From Hyphomicrobium sp. (GTDB lineage Bacteria; Pseudomonadota; Alphaproteobacteria; Rhizobiales; Hyphomicrobiaceae): DNA of 64,000 nt. How positions within the stretch are numbered: position 1 is the first letter of the stretch; every line of letters starts with the position of its first letter. Shown here piece by piece: positions 54,505 through 62,010 of the stretch. The notes below the pieces were generated by a model. The model made no database searches. It had not been told where the DNA came from and saw only the letters and a program-made list of their open reading frames with translations. Position numbers and translations under genes: made by a program. The stretch is from contig NZ_DAIQCD010000004.1 of assembly GCF_036780825.1 (NCBI RefSeq), forward strand, positions 33,412-97,411, given 5' to 3'.

Positions 54505-54937
54505 CGCCAGGACTGGACATCCATCCCGCCAAACAACATCGGCATCGGCAGTTGAAAGATAAAATACGGATTGATGACCGGCAGTACTCTGGCTGCATCA
54601 AGCCGCGCCCGGTGATCCTCGGACAGATGCAGCGAAAGCGCCGCGAAGTTCGCCGTTAACTGTGCAGGCCGGCTCGCGCCTAAGGACCGCCACGGAAGCG
54701 CTACGGCAGAAATGCGTGAGAGGCCTGCGCGTCACCGAGATTTCGCCTGGCTTCATAGATACGGGTTTTGCAGATGCGGCCATCGACGATCCTGCCGTCA
54801 AGGCAGCCATACTGAAGCGGAAGGAGGAAATGGCCGTCTCTCCTGACGCCATCGCACGGGCCATCGCCTTTGCCGTCGAGCAGCCCGACGATGTCGAGAT
54901 CGGCAGCATCGTCGTGCGTCCTACTGCTCAGGATTGA
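54505..54937 (+). pseudogene. Degraded SDR (YdfG/COG4221-like) gene
   Basis: Intact C-terminus LRVTEISPGFIDT..PDAIARAIAFAVEQPDDVEIGSIVVRPTAQD; upstream relics SAAKFAV and GLDI..NNIGIG are in other frames. Confidence 0.75.
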
Positions 54938-55000: not shown

Positions 55001-55444
55001 TCAGCCGGCGTCGTGCACATGCAATGTGGGGGAATCCGGATTTGCCGGCAGCAGCGTATCGAGGGTCACCTCGCCGAACCGCCTGACGAACAGCGCTTCC
55101 GCCTGCGCCATCGTCTCGGAGAGGGCGGCGTTGACGTTCTTTTGAATCATACAATCCGTACGCTCGCTGCGATTACCTATGGCGAACAGGGTCGGGCAAT
55201 TGAGCGCCTGATAGACATCCAGCAATGTGATCTCCGCCAGCGGACGCGCCAGCCGCCAGCCACCACCATGGCCTTTGCCTGAATGGACATGGCCTGCCTC
55301 GCGTAACCCCGCCATCGTCCTGCGGAACACCGCCGGATTGGTTCCCATGCTCTTGGCGAGCATCTCGGAGGTCAGCGGCTCGTCGACCTGCCCCATGTGG
55401 AGCAGGACGTGCAGCACGTCGGAAAGCCTTGTGTCCTTGTTCAT
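55001..55444 (-). CDS. Rrf2 family regulator (non-Fe-S, SaiR/SifR-like)
   Basis: TRLSDVLHVLLH, TNPAVFRR..L..AG.V.S.KG.GGG; C-terminal DCMIQ but no three-Cys cluster motif. Confidence 0.9.
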   Translation of the reverse strand: MNKDTRLSDVLHVLLHMGQVDEPLTSEMLAKSMGTNPAVFRRTMAGLREAGHVHSGKGHGGGWRLARPLAEITLLDVYQALNCPTLFAIGNRSERTDCMIQKNVNAALSETMAQAEALFVRRFGEVTLDTLLPANPDSPTLHVHDAG

Positions 55445-55497
55445 CCGTATTTCCGTTTGCGAGCTTTCAGGCCGCAGACCGGCCTGATCCGGAGTTC

Positions 55498-55556
55498 ATG
55501 TATCTGTTCTTGATACGTAAGGCGGCACTGGTTATATGTATCTTCGTCTGATACAT
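55498..55556. promoter_or_regulatory. Two tandem ATGTATC-N7-GATACRT operators in the Rrf2/MFS divergent promoter
   Basis: 55498-55518 ATGTATC-TGTTCTT-GATACGT; 55536-55556 ATGTATC-TTCGTCT-GATACAT (perfect). Confidence 0.8.
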
Positions 55557-55570
55557 GATCCGGTGCCCAA

Positions 55571-57166
55571 ATGTCCAGCTTTGACAGTTCGACTTCGCCT
55601 GAAGACGCCATTCTTCTTCATGGTGATTCCTTGCCCGACCCTACGGTCCACGATCCCGCGCGACGCCGCAGCATCCTGATCACGGTCTGCATCGCGCTGA
55701 TGGCGGTCATCGCCGCCGTGACCGGCCTCAATGTCGCGCAGCCGCATCTGGCGCTCGATCTCGGGGCCAGCCAGAGCCAGGTGCTCTGGATGATCAATCT
55801 CTATGCGATCAGCCTTGCCTCGCTGCTGCTGCCGCTGGGCGCGGTGGGAGACCGCTGGGGCCGCAAGCCGGTGCTGCTGATCGGCCTTGCGGTTTTCGGG
55901 GTCGCCAATATTGGCTCGGCTCTTGCCCCGAGCGTCGAGGTGATGCTCGGCGCACGCTTCCTGAGCGGCGTCGGCGCGGCGATGATCATGCCGGTGACGC
56001 TCTCGGTCATTACCTCGGCCTTTCCCGACGAGGAACGATCGAAGGCCATCGGCATCTGGACCGGCGTGGCCGGCGCGGGCGGCATCCTCGGCATGTTCCT
56101 TTCCGCCGTGCTGGTCGATTTCCTGTCCTGGCGCTGGCTGTTCGCGCTTCCTGTCGTACTGGTAGCAGTTGCCGCGGTCATGGCTTTGCGTGCCGTTCCC
56201 AATTCGCGCCAGTCCTCGGAACATCGGTTCGATACGGTCGGCTCTGTCCTGTCGCTTCTCGCCATCATGGGCGCGAGTTTTGTTCTGCATGAAGGCCCGG
56301 CGATTGGTTGGACAGCGGCTCCGACGCTGTTTGGCTTTGCGGTCAGCATCGCCGCCTTCATCGCTTTCGTCTGGTGGGAACTGCGCCATCCCGACCCGTT
56401 GCTTGATATCAGGCTGTTCAGGAAACGCAGTCTGACCAGTGGCTCGGTCTCTCTGACGACCTGGTTCGGCGTGCAGGCCGGCGTATTCATCGTCCTCTAT
56501 CCATTCTTCCAGGCGGTCCTCGGGTGGTCGGGCCTGCGCGCCACGCTGGGCCTCATGCCCATGGCGTTGCTGATGATGGTTTTTTCCGGGGTCGCGCCGC
56601 TTCTGTCCGCACGAATCGGCCCGAAGACGACGATCGCCGGGGGCGTGCTGCTGGGTGCGACGGGGCTGGCACTGATGTCGCTCCTTGTGTCGGTCGATGG
56701 CGGATACCTCTCGGTTCTGCCGGGCATGGTCGCGATGGGCATCGGCATGGGATTGGCCATGGCGCCCTCGACGGAAGCGATCACGTCCTCCCTGCCACGC
56801 GATCAGCAGGGTGTCGCGTCGGCGCTCAACGATGTCACGCGCGAGTTGGGAACATCACTTGGGGTCGCTCTGCTCGGCGCGGTGTTCGCCGCAGGCTACA
56901 CAAGCGCGATCGCTCCGCGACTGGCCGGATTTCCCGGCGATGCAGCCAGACTGGCGGGACAAAACATTGCCAACGCAATGGCCCTCGCGGACGGCGGGTT
57001 GCCTTACGCGGATAGCCTCTACAGGGCCGCGCAGGAAGCTTTCGTCGAAAGCTGGCAGCAGGCGATGTGGGTCGGCGTCGGTGTGATGGCGCTGCTTTTC
57101 CTTTTTATCGTCCTGCGCGGCCCTGAGCGGCCTGCGTCAACCGAATCCACTTCCGCAAAAGCCTGA
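55571..57166 (+). CDS. MFS DHA2 (14-TMS) exporter
   Basis: WMINLY..L.PLGAVGDRWGRK, RFLSGVG, SALNDVTRELG. Confidence 0.93.
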   Translation: MSSFDSSTSPEDAILLHGDSLPDPTVHDPARRRSILITVCIALMAVIAAVTGLNVAQPHLALDLGASQSQVLWMINLYAISLASLLLPLGAVGDRWGRKPVLLIGLAVFGVANIGSALAPSVEVMLGARFLSGVGAAMIMPVTLSVITSAFPDEERSKAIGIWTGVAGAGGILGMFLSAVLVDFLSWRWLFALPVVLVAVAAVMALRAVPNSRQSSEHRFDTVGSVLSLLAIMGASFVLHEGPAIGWTAAPTLFGFAVSIAAFIAFVWWELRHPDPLLDIRLFRKRSLTSGSVSLTTWFGVQAGVFIVLYPFFQAVLGWSGLRATLGLMPMALLMMVFSGVAPLLSARIGPKTTIAGGVLLGATGLALMSLLVSVDGGYLSVLPGMVAMGIGMGLAMAPSTEAITSSLPRDQQGVASALNDVTRELGTSLGVALLGAVFAAGYTSAIAPRLAGFPGDAARLAGQNIANAMALADGGLPYADSLYRAAQEAFVESWQQAMWVGVGVMALLFLFIVLRGPERPASTESTSAKA

Positions 57167-57181
57167 TGCGGGGAGAATTTC

Positions 57182-58087
57182 ATGCACTATGATGCGATCA
57201 TCATCGGCGGCAGCTTCGCCGGCCTTTCCGCTGCCATGTATCTTGCCCGCGCCCGCAAATCCGTCTGCGTTCTCGATACGGGTGAGCCGCGCAATCGCTT
57301 CGCCGCCGCATCGCACGGCTTATTTGCGCAGGATGGGAGCGATCCCAAACTCATGCTTGACACGATGCGCCAGCAGGTTGGCGCCTATCCGACCGTACGC
57401 TTTTTCAACGATGCCGCCGTCGAGGCACAGAAGGCAGACGGTTCGTTCTCCGTGACCTTGCAGAGCGGGGCGACCATCGCCGGAAAGCGCCTGCTGCTCG
57501 CCTTCGGCGTCTCAGACATTCTTCCCGAGATGCCGGGGCTAGCCGAACGCTGGGGCGCATCCGTCATTCATTGCCCCTATTGCCACGGCTACGAGTTCAG
57601 CGACCGCCTGCTCGGCGTGCTGAACGTCTCGCCAATGTCCTACCATCAGGCGATGCTGATCGCAGACTGGGGCCCGGCGACCTTCTACCTGGACGGCGGC
57701 GAGCTGGAGGCAGCGGCCAGCGAAGCGCTTTCCCGGCGCGGTGTGCGCATCGAGCCGGCGCGTGTCGAACATGTGACGGGTGACGGATCCAACCTTTCGG
57801 CAATCCACCTTTCGGATGGCAGCACGCAGCCCATCGATGCTCTGTTCATCAGTCCACGCAATCGTCTCAACAGCGAGATTGCCGGGACGCTGGGCTGCGA
57901 TATCGATCATGGGCCACTCGGCTCAACCGTGAAGGTCGACCAGATGCAGATGACCAGCGTTCCCGACGTGTATGCCGCCGGCGACATTACCCGCATGGCG
58001 CACAACGTCACCTTCGCCTGCGCCGACGGGGTCATGGCGGCAATGGCGATCCATCGCTCCCTTGTGTTCGGGGGTGACAAGCAATGA
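57182..58087 (+). CDS. TrxB-like FAD oxidoreductase (GliT/HlmI-like dithiol oxidase group)
   Basis: IIGGSFAGLSAA, HCPYCHGYE, VYAAGD; the canonical NADPH GxGxxA motif is absent. Confidence 0.85.
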   Translation: MHYDAIIIGGSFAGLSAAMYLARARKSVCVLDTGEPRNRFAAASHGLFAQDGSDPKLMLDTMRQQVGAYPTVRFFNDAAVEAQKADGSFSVTLQSGATIAGKRLLLAFGVSDILPEMPGLAERWGASVIHCPYCHGYEFSDRLLGVLNVSPMSYHQAMLIADWGPATFYLDGGELEAAASEALSRRGVRIEPARVEHVTGDGSNLSAIHLSDGSTQPIDALFISPRNRLNSEIAGTLGCDIDHGPLGSTVKVDQMQMTSVPDVYAAGDITRMAHNVTFACADGVMAAMAIHRSLVFGGDKQ

Positions 58088-58764
58088 ACGACAATCTCAC
58101 GCCGTTCCTGAACCCGACCTCTGTCGCATCTTACGCCGAGGAAACTTTGAAGAAAGTCCCCGGCCTCACCGACCTGCACCGCATGACCGAGCTGCTTCTC
58201 GCCGAGCACGCGCCGGACGCAGCGCGCATCCTCGTGGTCGGCGCCGGCGGCGGGCTGGAACTGAAGGCGATGGCGCAAGTGCGACCGGAATGGCGCTTCA
58301 CCGGCGTCGATCCGTCACCTGCCATGCTGGACCTCGCACACAAAGCCGTCTCGCCGTTCGCTGGCCGCATGGACCTGAGTGCCGGAACTGTGGATGAGGC
58401 ACCGCCCGGTCCATACGACGGCGCGACATGTCTTCTCACGCTTCACTTTCTCGACAGGGATGAAAGGCTGAAGACGCTGCGGGAAATCCGTCATCGCCTG
58501 AAACCCGGCAGCGCCGTCGTCGTCGCTCATCACACCGCGCCGGACGCCGCCTCGGAGCGATGGCTCGCTCGCTCGGCTCTCTTCGCCGACCGGGACGGGT
58601 CCGATCCGGCAAAGGCCGCCGCTTCCGCAGCTATTATGGCACAGCGTCTGCCCCTCCTGACGCCTGACGACGAGGAGACGCTTCTGCTGGAAGCAGGTTT
58701 TGTGGACCCGGCGCTGTTCTATGCCGCGTTTTCGTTCCGCGGCTGGGTCGCGATCGCCGGCTGA
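58084..58764 (+). CDS. Class I SAM-dependent methyltransferase
   Basis: ILVVGAGGGLE, FTGVDPSPAML, YDGATCLLTLHF; ATGA coupling with the oxidoreductase. Confidence 0.9.
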   Translation: MNDNLTPFLNPTSVASYAEETLKKVPGLTDLHRMTELLLAEHAPDAARILVVGAGGGLELKAMAQVRPEWRFTGVDPSPAMLDLAHKAVSPFAGRMDLSAGTVDEAPPGPYDGATCLLTLHFLDRDERLKTLREIRHRLKPGSAVVVAHHTAPDAASERWLARSALFADRDGSDPAKAAASAAIMAQRLPLLTPDDEETLLLEAGFVDPALFYAAFSFRGWVAIAG

Positions 58765-58802
58765 GTGGTGGGTTTGCCTGACCGGACATAGGAGCCGACA
58801 TA

Positions 58803-59771
58803 TTGGCCATCAAACTCTACAATTTTGCCTTCGGGCCTTATCCGCAAAGGCTCAACATCTACCTGGCCGAGAAAAAGCCAACCAATGTTGAGGTCACCCT
58901 GTTCGACGAGCCGGACAGACGGGCCGATGTCCCGCCGGCAGCGATCACGGCGCTTACTGTGACCGGGTCGATGCCTATCCTCAAAGATGAGGACGGCACG
59001 GTCATTGGTCAGTCGCTGGCGATCCTCGAATATCTCGAGGACAAGGCCTTCGGTCCCGACATGTTGGGAGCAATGCCTGCTGCGCGGGCGCGCACCCGGC
59101 AATTCGTGCATATGCTCGATGAAGCGCTGACGTTCTTCGGCCTATGGGGGCGTCATGGCAGTCCGCTCGGCCATGGCATCGTGCGGACCAGTCAGGACGT
59201 CGCCGAAATCTGCGCTATCAGGTATTTCGGGCAACTGCGTCTTATCGAGAAAATGATTGGCGGCACTGAGTTCATCGCAGGAGATCGGATAACCGTGGCC
59301 GACTGCGTTGCCATGGCGACCCTGCAATATGCGGCAGACTTCTACGCGGTACCGGTTCCACCGGAATGCATCAAACTACAGACGTGGTTCGAACATTTCT
59401 CCACGCGACCGAGCGCCGCTCGGCCCGGATACCCCGAGGATAAGCTTGCACGGGCGCAGGGCCTGGCCGCCTACTCGCTCAGCAGGCGCAGCAACCCTGA
59501 TGACGCGATTGCCGATCTGCGCTGCCGCGAAGGTACGATCATGAAGCGAATAGGTTTCTATTTCCGCGATGGCAGCCGGACTTGTTCGCCCCCCGTGCCG
59601 GACGCAGTCGCTGAATGGGCTGCCGAAAAAGAATATGATGTCGTAGTGTGGACAGGGCTGCCCAGCAACTTCAAGGATAAGACTGGCAAAGAGTTCTCAG
59701 TCGCAGAGGCAATTAGTCACCTCCAATCGCTGACTAAAGACGGCAAGTCTATGGCCGCAACTTATGTTTGA
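58803..59771 (+). CDS. Glutathione S-transferase (about aa 1-221) fused in frame to the 3' remnant of an unrelated gene
   Basis: LYNFAFGPYPQRL, SMPILKDEDG..QSLAILEYLE, ITVADC; after ..AQGL the sequence switches to AAYSLSRRS..DLRCREGT..VVWTGLPSNF. Confidence 0.75.
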   Translation: MAIKLYNFAFGPYPQRLNIYLAEKKPTNVEVTLFDEPDRRADVPPAAITALTVTGSMPILKDEDGTVIGQSLAILEYLEDKAFGPDMLGAMPAARARTRQFVHMLDEALTFFGLWGRHGSPLGHGIVRTSQDVAEICAIRYFGQLRLIEKMIGGTEFIAGDRITVADCVAMATLQYAADFYAVPVPPECIKLQTWFEHFSTRPSAARPGYPEDKLARAQGLAAYSLSRRSNPDDAIADLRCREGTIMKRIGFYFRDGSRTCSPPVPDAVAEWAAEKEYDVVVWTGLPSNFKDKTGKEFSVAEAISHLQSLTKDGKSMAATYV

Positions 59772-59903
59772 AGCGCACCGGATCTAATCCGAACGCCTCT
59801 AAGGAATGCCTTACAAGTCGAGCCATGGTTTGCCGCGTTTGCAACCGCCGGGGATGCAGCACATACCAATGCATCCGTAGGCGACGGTGAGCCGCCCATC
59901 TAG
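59466..59903 (+). pseudogene. 3' remnant of an uncharacterised gene (possibly GGCT-like) with an internal TGA at 59769
   Basis: The frame continues past TGA as SAPDLIRTPLRNALQVEPWF.. to TAG 59901-59903, which overlaps the qatD stop in one CTAG. Confidence 0.6.
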
Positions 59904-60652
59904 CTCCGCTCGGCAAGTAGGTCTTTGAGGTTATTCAGAATGGCTGCGGACATGTCTCTTACTGAAATCCCATGCAGACGCGCCAATCCCTCGACAGCGA
60001 CCCAAACATCGCTTGGTGTGGAAGGATTACCGCTAGTTTGTGTGAACGGTCCGTCCGTCTCTGTCAAAATGCGATCGAGAGGCAAAGATTTGGTTATTGC
60101 CGCCCGCTTTTCATTTACGAGCATCTCGGCGTTCACTGAAAAATAGCAGCCGAGATCTACCGCCCGCTTTGCCTCTTTCGCGGTACCGGTGAACCAATGA
60201 AGCACAACGCGTCCACGCTGGGGCGGCATGTATTGCTCGACCATATCGAGCACGGCTTTCGTCGCTCTGACGCTATGCGTCGTGACGATCTTGTTCCCCG
60301 CCGCCGCACAGAGCGTCAGCACACGAGCGAAAATCTCTTTTTGCGTCTCAAACGACCTGTAGAACCGCGGGCCGGCGTCCAGTCCGACCTCGCCAACATA
60401 GCGTGTTAGCGGAAGCAATTCCTCCCACAGCCCGATCTCGCGGGCGCGCTCGCCGACCAGTTGAGGATGCAGGCCGAGAGCCGCGCGAACGTGACGGGTG
60501 GCGGACGCCAGTTCATGGTTCCGCGGCCAAGCTCTAGGCGTGGTGGTCACGGCGAGGGTGAAAACGCCATCGCTCTCGCAACGCTCCACCGCGGCCACGT
60601 GGTCCGGGTAGAGATCGAGGTGGCAATGAAAATCAACGAGACTTGATCGCAT
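59900..60652 (-). CDS. qatD: Qat system TatD-family nuclease
   Basis: DFHCHLDLY, LGLHPQL, VGEVGLD, HSVRA, HWFTG, LTETDGPF. Confidence 0.92.
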   Translation of the reverse strand: MRSSLVDFHCHLDLYPDHVAAVERCESDGVFTLAVTTTPRAWPRNHELASATRHVRAALGLHPQLVGERAREIGLWEELLPLTRYVGEVGLDAGPRFYRSFETQKEIFARVLTLCAAAGNKIVTTHSVRATKAVLDMVEQYMPPQRGRVVLHWFTGTAKEAKRAVDLGCYFSVNAEMLVNEKRAAITKSLPLDRILTETDGPFTQTSGNPSTPSDVWVAVEGLARLHGISVRDMSAAILNNLKDLLAERS

Positions 60653-60660
60653 GATGCCTC

Positions 60661-62010
60661 TTACGACGGTGCGGTGCGAACGCCAGTCAGCAAGCGCCCA
60701 ACCTCTTCCAATCCGCGGCGGTAGACATCAGCCAAGTCATCGTGACGGGAAGGATCATCATAGAGCGGCCCTGGCTTGTGGATGAGGGCCTTGGCGAGTT
60801 CCGGACGCTTCGATAGCCGCGCGATCGCGATCTGAAAGGATCGGACCTGCTGACCTTCGGCCTGTCGGGTGTCTAATGTGGCAGTCTTCAGGTCTGGCAC
60901 GCCGTAAATTGTCGAATCCTTGCCCTGTAGAGAGGCCCGTCGAATGAGACACGGTAGGCAGTATCCGCAGTGTCCCTGTGGCTTCTTGGTCCAGCGCCCC
61001 TTCGTCGGCGATGAACATGATAGCGACAGCGGGGCGAGCTGCTTCAACAGGGCCGGATTGGTGCATTGGGTGACCATCTCCCCCTTGGTCTTGTCCCAAT
61101 AGGGATTTTCGACCTTCCCTCCGACACCGAGCGCCCGCAGCAGATCGTTCCACCGGGCCATGTAGAAGGGATGCGTCGTGCGGGTGCTGAGCGCGCCGAG
61201 CCGAAGTCTATCGAGCGGCACGTTGAGCGCGATCAACCCGTTTTCCGGAACCTTGAGCACGAAGTCGCGGCCGAGCGCAGTCCCGGCGGCCAAGCCCAGC
61301 GAGAAGAACAGGAACGAGCGGCCGCGTGTGGTGTCCTCCGATCCGACGTCCTCGACAAACCCGCTATCGAAGCTCATCCATACCCGCAGCCGATCGAAAG
61401 AAGAGGCTTTATAAGCGGCTTTCAAACCGTGGAAGCACTGCTCCTGCGACTTGCTCACCAGTCCTTCGCCGGCATGGCTGACCAGAAGCGGCGTCTCGCC
61501 GGCATTCAAGCTGTCGATCGCACCGATCAAACTGTCCAAACCACCGGAGAACAAGCTCACGCCATCGAACGGGGCGGGAATGAGGGTGGGCGCGGCAGGA
61601 GAAACCAGCTTCGCGTAGCCCTTGGCCCGTTTGCGGAAGCCCACATCCCATCTGTCGCCTGTCAGGAAGTTCAAGGCGCGGACCAAGATCGGCGCGGCGG
61701 CCGTCCATCGCACTGGATCGCTCACGGGGACGACTAATCGAATCTCGCGCGTCCAGGCATCCTGCGATTCCGTCGAGCGGGAGATGCGGGTGTCCGCTGC
61801 GTGAACGTGGGCCGCGACCACGAGCATGTCCGCGCCGATCTCGCTCGGGGTCAGGTGCAGCGCCTTGAGGTCAGCCAAGGCGTGGCCGATCCCATGATCG
61901 AGACGCTTGCCCGCTACCAACTGTAAGATCGATGCGACTTCGTCGCGCGCCTTTGGAACACGGGTCTTATCGTCCTCGCCGAAACGGCCAATGATGACAT
62001 GGCGCCTCAT
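60661..62010 (-). CDS. qatC: Qat system QueC-like protein
   Basis: LFSGGLDSLIG, RGRSFLF, VPENG, STRTTHP, SCSSP..HCGYCLPCLIRR. Confidence 0.93.
   Translation of the reverse strand: MRRHVIIGRFGEDDKTRVPKARDEVASILQLVAGKRLDHGIGHALADLKALHLTPSEIGADMLVVAAHVHAADTRISRSTESQDAWTREIRLVVPVSDPVRWTAAAPILVRALNFLTGDRWDVGFRKRAKGYAKLVSPAAPTLIPAPFDGVSLFSGGLDSLIGAIDSLNAGETPLLVSHAGEGLVSKSQEQCFHGLKAAYKASSFDRLRVWMSFDSGFVEDVGSEDTTRGRSFLFFSLGLAAGTALGRDFVLKVPENGLIALNVPLDRLRLGALSTRTTHPFYMARWNDLLRALGVGGKVENPYWDKTKGEMVTQCTNPALLKQLAPLSLSCSSPTKGRWTKKPQGHCGYCLPCLIRRASLQGKDSTIYGVPDLKTATLDTRQAEGQQVRSFQIAIARLSKRPELAKALIHKPGPLYDDPSRHDDLADVYRRGLEEVGRLLTGVRTAPS

Follow-up and report, generated by a model that had tools for sequence, protein, structure and literature searches.

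What is an Rrf2-family regulator doing back to back with genes for an exporter, a flavoprotein, a methyltransferase and a glutathione S-transferase (GST)? We addressed this question for a locus of Hyphomicrobium sp., found in a 64,000-nt stretch of contig NZ_DAIQCD010000004.1 (the window, to whose full length all coordinates refer) in a genome of 3.2 Mb that is 99.85% complete. A sequence-only reading had seen here an Rrf2 gene divergent from four co-oriented genes, for a major facilitator superfamily (MFS) exporter, a CxxC flavoprotein, a methyltransferase coupled by ATGA and a GST, and had proposed a stand-alone defence against dithiol toxins. All five genes were confirmed. We consider it probable that the locus is an Rrf2-repressed detoxification operon against natural-product toxins of the dithiol/disulfide type. 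The targets would include epidithiodiketopiperazines (gliotoxin being one), dithiolopyrrolones (e.g. holomycin) and other thiol chelators of a similar kind. Fungi and bacteria make wide use of gliotoxin, holomycin, thiolutin and related disulfide toxins as weapons, and these compounds are also candidate scaffolds for antibiotics.

The flavoprotein and its characterised relative DnoP

The flavoprotein gene (57182-58087, + strand) encodes 301 aa with the motif HCPYCHGYE. Judged from its sequence, the product is a dithiol oxidase of the DepH/DnoP clade that is independent of reduced nicotinamide adenine dinucleotide phosphate (NADPH), and not a thioredoxin reductase. Among solved structures it matched an oxidoreductase of Agrobacterium tumefaciens (3fbs, 2e-79), DepH (1.8e-76) and HlmI (1e-48) over their full length, followed by 4fk1 of Bacillus anthracis (1e-35) and the fungal GliT (8e-24). 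DepH reached 260 bits, HlmI 169 and GliT 88, as compared to at most 82 for true thioredoxin reductases, and the TrxB equivalog model gave 80 bits against a cut-off of 343. The domain Pyr_redox_2 (80 bits) and an N-terminal motif for binding flavin adenine dinucleotide (FAD; IIIGGSFAG) were present. The second GxGxxG/A motif, the NADPH site, was absent, and the region aligned to the NADPH-binding segment of TrxB reads LLGVLNVSPMSYHQAML, as in DepH. In a FastTree phylogeny of 86 sequences, rooted on 4fk1, HlmI branched off next; the clade of the window oxidase took in DepH, 3fbs and the DnoP orthologue, and left out HlmI and 4fk1. Identity was about 50% to DepH and 48-49% to DnoP of the Pseudomonas aeruginosa group (48% to the orthologue of P. 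paraeruginosa). The active-site residues listed in the supporting information of the DnoP paper (R37, N38, H45, P55, H130 and H135; PMC11317636), as well as C131 and C134, were found in the window oxidase and in at least 97% of 84 family sequences. Tree and bit scores, with GliT, HlmI, DepH and TrxB in the comparison, thus grouped the protein with the DepH/DnoP clade, and the proposal of a GliT/HlmI-type dithiol oxidase was borne out. By analogy to its relatives, the window oxidase is predicted to reoxidise reduced gliotoxin- or holomycin-type dithiols in an O2-dependent manner.

DepH, HlmI and GliT are all encoded in biosynthetic clusters, and DepH nests in this very clade. This would suit a remnant of such a cluster, in which genes for tailoring and self-resistance served a disulfide compound made by the organism itself, an explanation that we regard as extremely unlikely. 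No condensation domain of a nonribosomal peptide synthetase (NRPS) was detected in the whole genome, regulator-linked stand-alone genes dominate the oxidase clade, and biosynthetic genes were not recurrent around 160 related loci. As the genome is without NRPS, the locus would serve defence and not the self-protection of a producer. The claim that no biosynthetic gene lies nearby thus stood, and the reading as stand-alone resistance fits.

The sequence-only reading had also taken this combination to be undescribed, which has to be corrected, as DnoP (PA4170 of P. aeruginosa) has already been published as a stand-alone dithiol-oxidase defence (Dolan, Duong & Whiteley, PNAS 2024, PMC11317636). 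DnoP is a DepH-group dithiol oxidase in an organism that does not produce disulfide toxins. It protects against gliotoxin, chaetocin, chetomin and holomycin and complements a gliT deletion of Aspergillus fumigatus, and expression of dnoP rises with these toxins or with TPEN, a zinc chelator, and falls when zinc is added (PMC11317636). The authors termed DnoP a 'single protein system', the signalling cascade of which 'has yet to be elucidated' (PMC11317636).

Induction by TPEN and repression by zinc, together with an invariant His/His/Cys set in the regulator (see below), would also be expected of a response to zinc starvation, directed at a thiol metabolite or metallophore of the cell itself and not at a foreign toxin. 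We find this explanation very unlikely, as the dnoP mutant is sensitive to the toxins but not to TPEN, and a direct role in zinc homeostasis was ruled out by the authors (PMC11317636). In addition, no zinc-uptake or metallophore genes were linked to the system in the 160 related loci, and beyond chance level the candidate operator occurs nowhere else in the genome.

The Rrf2 regulator and its candidate operator

The DnoP locus was examined in strain ATCC 9027 of P. paraeruginosa, which is sister to P. aeruginosa. Synteny and protein lengths agree with those of PA4169-PA4172, and a protein fragment of P. aeruginosa (P0131) is nearly identical to the P. paraeruginosa DnoP orthologue. The gene divergent from dnoP encodes a protein of 142 aa (Pfam Rrf2, 116 bits), which is 53% identical over 131 aa, with no gaps, to the window Rrf2 (55001-55444, - strand; 147 aa; Pfam Rrf2, 102 bits). 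By this alignment the window Rrf2 is a homologue of PA4169 of the P. aeruginosa group. The dataset of the DnoP paper has PA4169 as a 'conserved hypothetical protein' (143 aa), co-induced by gliotoxin with a log2 fold change of about 3, and Rrf2 is nowhere mentioned (PMC11317636). Neither this paper nor a review of October 2026 touches on a link to Rrf2, on the operator or on a methyltransferase arm, and the review names no regulator of DnoP. No paper on PA4169 was found in the literature, and none of the top-ranked matches tied Rrf2 to these toxins, with most subscription journals outside the search. The stand-alone oxidase defence is already known; the Rrf2 regulator, its operator and the methyltransferase arm appear to be undescribed in the searched literature.

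We surveyed the neighbourhoods of 80 oxidase homologues and of the 80 closest Rrf2 homologues (56-88% identity). The only widespread neighbour of the oxidase in its 80 loci was this Rrf2, which adjoined it in about 68 of the 80 genomes (about 85%), lying upstream in the same orientation or divergent from it. The other four Rrf2 genes of the Hyphomicrobium genome fall outside the subfamily.

The best solved relatives of the window Rrf2 were 1ylf and YwnA (1xd7), both of which keep His12 and the Cys and are without His16. Within the subfamily His12, His16 and Cys98 were invariant (150/150 members) and His59 was found in 146 of 150. A regulator with an Fe-S cluster, as in IscR, NsrR, RirA or RsrR, was not supported, as Cys98 is the only conserved cysteine, and the window Rrf2 has no three-Cys motif and scored far below the cut-offs of all these equivalog models. 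On its sequence, the protein is a cluster-less Rrf2 of the YwnA-like type with His12, His16, His59 and Cys98 as candidate sensor residues.

HypR, which controls MerA in Staphylococcus aureus, is likewise cluster-less, and together with the YwnA type it shares with the window Rrf2 a conserved Cys near position 98-99 (Cys99 in HypR) and the control of a flavin disulfide enzyme. The locus could accordingly belong to a general thiol/disulfide or oxidant-stress regulon (hypochlorite, diamide, allicin, quinones), in which the Rrf2 Cys is oxidised and the enzymes restore or clear low-molecular-weight thiols that have been oxidised, and do not act on foreign toxins; regulons of this sort often include GSTs and flavin disulfide enzymes. 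We consider this unlikely. The window Rrf2 reached 39.6 bits with the HypR model (NF041852), as compared to a cut-off of 180, and has no Cys near the position of HypR Cys33, i.e. no second sensing Cys, but carries the additional invariant His16 and the conserved His59. As Cys98 is the sole Cys in 63 of the 150 members, a two-cysteine switch is not the conserved mechanism of the subfamily. Furthermore, the partner enzyme at the window locus is an NADPH-independent oxidase whereas that of HypR is an NADPH reductase, oxidant repair would hardly explain why a methyltransferase is the main partner, and dnoP responds to TPEN, which is not an oxidant, with a mutant that is specifically toxin-sensitive.

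Sensing through a bound metal fits the regulator better in our interpretation. In RsrR and NsrR the Cys loop of each subunit lies opposite residues 8-12 of its partner. The window Rrf2 matched RsrR in register over residues 11-86, and with this subunit geometry a His/His/Cys metal site between the subunits is plausible. Such a site would fit the behaviour of dnoP towards TPEN and zinc. The main alternative to sensing by metal loss would be direct modification of Cys98 by a disulfide toxin.

The Rrf2 gene and the MFS gene are divergent and separated by 126 bp, a gap that holds two candidate operator sites. Site 1 (55498-55518) is a 21-bp palindrome, ATGTATC-N7-GATACGT, and site 2 (55536-55556), 38 bp from site 1 and just 5' of the MFS start, is a perfect palindrome, ATGTATC-N7-GATACAT. 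Both resemble the family consensus of 21 bp, ATGTAAC-N7-GTTACAT. This consensus was present upstream of Rrf2 in 48 of 70 oxidase-centred loci (about 1 expected) and in 70 of 79 Rrf2-centred loci (about 2.4 expected), the expectations being computed from the background of the loci themselves. Divergent loci usually had two sites about 34-40 bp apart, mostly 36-37 bp (37 related divergent loci), and co-oriented loci had a single site ending at the Rrf2 start codon. With up to one mismatch allowed, the pattern occurred genome-wide only in this intergenic region and at one further site of chance level. The latter, the third operator-like site of the genome (C2:195248), was set aside for that reason.

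In P. paraeruginosa an operator-like sequence, ATGAAAC-N7-GTTTCAT (L172:7828-7848), overlaps the dnoP start of the long, annotated open reading frame (MKLMLF...). Oxidase homologues and the P. aeruginosa fragment P0131 start at MTFDVII, and the annotated start of the 311-aa PA4170 may be about 15 codons too early.

Effector genes and borders of the operon

The Rrf2-centred survey (n = 80) showed which effectors go with the regulator. The methyltransferase was a partner in 61 loci, the oxidase in 26, the GST orthologue in eight and the MFS orthologue in six. Rrf2 with the methyltransferase (38 loci), with the oxidase (11) and with both (9) were among the combinations, and every combination was found. 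An earlier survey centred on the methyltransferase had covered 13 loci only, its peptide patterns reaching close relatives, and had badly underestimated the Rrf2 link, which the Rrf2-centred survey corrected. As it is adjacent in 61 of 80 loci, the methyltransferase ranks as a core partner, not as an accessory, of the sensor. Shinella daejeonensis and Mesorhizobium sp. SB112 carry the full gene set, and Brucella gallinifaecis has nearly all of it. MFS orthologues with 69-83% identity stood behind the same Rrf2 in five loci (L187, L189, L192, L204 and L220), and the GST orthologues, with 64-78% identity, followed the methyltransferase in all eight of their loci. The genes thus co-occur in other genomes, and the recurrence of the same genes with this Rrf2 in many of them is far beyond chance. 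The proposal of one five-gene system held as far as the recurrence with the same Rrf2 is concerned, but not as a fixed set. The constant part of the regulon, on comparison of these sequences, is Rrf2 with its operator; the effectors are mixed and matched, and the five-gene form is a lineage-specific assembly of a far wider modular regulon.

Several further variants were observed. An Rrf2/methyltransferase-GST unit is carried by the 283-kb plasmid unnamed1 of Rhizobium cremeum (L210), in keeping with a horizontal spread of the regulon. In an alphaproteobacterial metagenome-assembled genome the oxidase is followed by the methyltransferase in two tandem copies (L199:2345-3830). The MFS gene is in two pieces in B. 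gallinifaecis, and the methyltransferase gene is in two pieces in a Mesorhizobium metagenome-assembled genome, Sphingomonas hylomeconis and Pannonibacter phragmitetus (loci L192, L003, L179 and L223 for the four organisms); decay or assembly error is possible in each case.

The methyltransferase of the window (58084-58764, + strand; 226 aa; Pfam Methyltransf_12/25) is a class I enzyme dependent on S-adenosylmethionine (SAM). Its family comprises more than 5,000 clusters, all with generic names. The AlphaFold2 model (predicted local distance difference test score 87.6) was closest in fold to the carboxyl O-methyltransferases CysG and BelI and to CmoA. From the His-His-Asp metal motif of CysG/BelI it retains only the first His (the invariant H121), and the next residue is Phe. 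GtmA was absent from its sequence matches in the PDB (E ≤ 0.01) and from the top 50 fold matches; the suggested kinship with GtmA comes down to the class I fold that they have in common and was not upheld. That the enzyme S-methylates toxin thiols is a guess, which follows from the company its gene keeps.

Fusions of the oxidase with methyltransferases gave a second line of evidence. The search was limited to proteins longer than 414 aa with an oxidase domain (E ≤ 1e-15) and returned 283 clusters; of the best 120 of these, 111 also carried a methyltransferase domain. Many are named 'bifunctional NAD(P)/FAD-dependent oxidoreductase/class I SAM-dependent methyltransferase' by NCBI, and Actinomycetota, with Nocardioides and Microbacterium among them, are the main source. 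The fused domains represent at least two methyltransferase families other than that of the window enzyme, one of which matches TPMT (29.8 bits) and TehB (22.9-25.7 bits) at or near the cut-offs. Two fusion types were checked, and both stand behind the same operator and an Rrf2 of this subfamily (55-56% identity), with an MFS gene immediately downstream in one and about 3.8 kb downstream, after four other genes, in the other. It can be argued that the recruitment of three unrelated methyltransferases to the same oxidase and sensor reflects selection on the methylation of one substrate class. The parallel drawn earlier between oxidase, methyltransferase and exporter and the fungal GliT/GtmA/GliA in this way finds support in comparative genomics, among others in the natural fusions that follow the same Rrf2.

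Beside Rrf2 and a fusion, one locus (L269:5650-9217) has three more class I methyltransferase genes and a gene for a periplasmic binding protein, and then an MFS gene. Products of 439-454 aa with Rrf2 and oxidase domains (P0122 and P0132) could be true fusions of a rare kind or come from gene calls that read through; each is a single record, and they were set aside. Apparent fusions of the oxidase with DJ-1 (P0178 and P0131) were rejected as frameshifted assemblies.

TPMT and TehB are families known for S, Se and Te methylation. Their matches to the fused domains, and a His/Cys site in the regulator that could bind soft metals, would fit the detoxification of chalcogen oxyanions or thiophilic metalloids such as selenite and tellurite, with the flavoprotein processing selenotrisulfides or thiol adducts and the methyltransferase making volatile methylated species. 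However, the window methyltransferase itself gave no match with either the TPMT or the TehB model. Reduction of the oxyanions needs an NAD(P)H site, which the oxidase is without, and the homologue that has been tested acts on organic dithiols (PMC11317636). We rate a role in metalloid detoxification as quite improbable.

The exporter (55571-57166, + strand; 531 aa; MFS_1, 180 bits) is the first gene of the operon. Its best family was DHA2/EmrB (TIGR00711) with 226.5 bits against a cut-off of 230.2, ahead of SmvA, QacA and LfrA. It is presumed to export the re-oxidised or methylated toxin. The four + strand genes are spaced by 15, -4 and 38 bp, with ribosome-binding sites, and the methyltransferase ATG overlaps the oxidase TGA as ATGA. 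No credible internal terminator was found among the four genes, which look like one operon.

The GST gene (58803-59771, + strand) starts with TTG, preceded by GGAG. Domains GST_N_2 (40.8 bits) and GST_C (28.9 bits) cover residues 1-205, and the best solved relatives were 4n0v and yeast Gtt2. The earlier coordinates of the unit, 55001..59466, are right as to the genes, but 59466 is only about the end of the GST-homologous part; no stop codon lies there and the frame stays open to 59771. Intact relatives have 229-231 aa, and homology ends at about residue 222 (nt 59440-59470, approximately). The gene has lost its own last few codons and its stop and continues into about 98 foreign codons, for which there was no match to Pfam or other family models. 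GC content drops to 0.56-0.58 in this part (59467-59771).

Directly after the GST gene, on the - strand, lies a Qat anti-phage system (59900-64000) with QatD (59900-60652; 349 bits, NCBIfam equivalog), QatC (60661-62010; 535 bits, NCBIfam equivalog) and further genes upstream of these. The 3' end of the GST gene looks like a junction scar between the detoxification operon and this defence island. On the left of Rrf2 a short-chain dehydrogenase gene is reduced to its last 85 or so codons (54680-54937). The Rrf2 of Peteryoungia ipomoeae (L218) and that of Rhizobium sp. RU33A (L222) are flanked by an intact short-chain dehydrogenase, a flavin reductase and a second dehydrogenase. With a truncated dehydrogenase on one side and the foreign GST tail on the other, the unit is bounded by rearrangement scars. 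DNA similarity to S. daejeonensis (73.6% over 4.3 kb) spans exactly the five genes and nothing beyond.

Proposed mechanism and known systems

Gliotoxin-like toxins are known to enter the cell as disulfides and to be reduced in the cytoplasm, upon which the dithiol strips zinc from proteins. We propose that, without toxin, an Rrf2 dimer binds the two 21-bp palindromes and represses both its own gene and the MFS-led operon, as the conserved operator suggests. A toxin that enters, is reduced and withdraws zinc would inactivate the repressor, most likely through the loss of a metal held by His12, His16 and Cys98, or alternatively through modification of Cys98. The flavoprotein would then re-oxidise the dithiol to the non-chelating disulfide with O2 and without NADPH, as has been shown for DnoP and DepH. 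From the linkage of their genes, the methyltransferase may cap the thiols by S-methylation, the DHA2-type pump may export the products, and the GST may handle mixed disulfides of glutathione and toxin.

Several observations weigh against a dithiol-toxin defence of this kind. The methyltransferase is without detectable similarity to GtmA; among solved structures it is closest to carboxyl O-methyltransferases and CmoA. The regulator is seldom accompanied by a GST or MFS gene (8/80 and 6/80 loci, respectively), and the damage to the 3' end of the GST gene may impair its function. The window Rrf2 has Gln at position 101, where Glu is usual (133 of 150 members). Finally, the natural substrate of DnoP was called uncertain by its authors (PMC11317636).

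A more far-reaching proposal can be made tentatively, although we rate it as less likely than not. In it, Rrf2 proteins of the PA4169 type would be metal-dependent, probably Zn(II)-dependent, repressors. The metal would be bound between two subunits, by His12/His16 on one side and by Cys98, perhaps together with Glu101, on the other, and the protein would report the stripping of metal in the cytoplasm by dithiol toxins. PA4169 would be the missing regulator of dnoP, and in hundreds of species its relatives would govern a convergent bacterial counterpart of GliT/GtmA/GliA, with the 226-aa methyltransferase founding a new family of toxin-thiol S-methyltransferases.

To our knowledge, DnoP is the only described bacterial defence of this kind in a non-producer. 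The present analysis adds a candidate regulator for DnoP-type defences, the PA4169 family, with a defined operator, and a second candidate effector, an uncharacterised methyltransferase family that accompanies this sensor even more frequently than the oxidase does. Across Proteobacteria and Actinomycetota, combinations of oxidase, methyltransferase and exporter are met with again and again, fusions included. If true, this would explain how bacteria sense these toxins, and would make resistance to dithiol-based drugs predictable from genome sequence.

As compared to GliT/GtmA/GliA of A. fumigatus, the locus would use the same three routes, i.e. re-oxidation of the dithiol, S-methylation and export, the latter two being conjectural here. 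GliT is however only a distant relative of the window oxidase, GtmA has no detectable similarity to the methyltransferase, and the fungal genes lie in or near a biosynthetic cluster. DepH (FK228), TdpH and HlmI (holomycin) are also NADP-independent FAD oxidases with CPYC, and DepH belongs to the same clade. These enzymes are encoded inside clusters of NRPS and polyketide synthase genes and serve one product each, whereas the window gene is linked to a regulator in a genome without NRPS. In Streptomyces, HlmI together with S-methylation provides a parallel to the pairing of oxidase and methyltransferase. The system of DnoP also comes close, with an enzyme of the same clade, the CxxC and the active-site residues, no NADPH site, a non-producer as host, and a divergent Rrf2 homologue (PA4169) upstream with the same type of palindrome. 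The neighbour of dnoP is a DJ-1/PfpI gene, whereas the window oxidase stands in an operon with the MFS pump, the methyltransferase and the GST.

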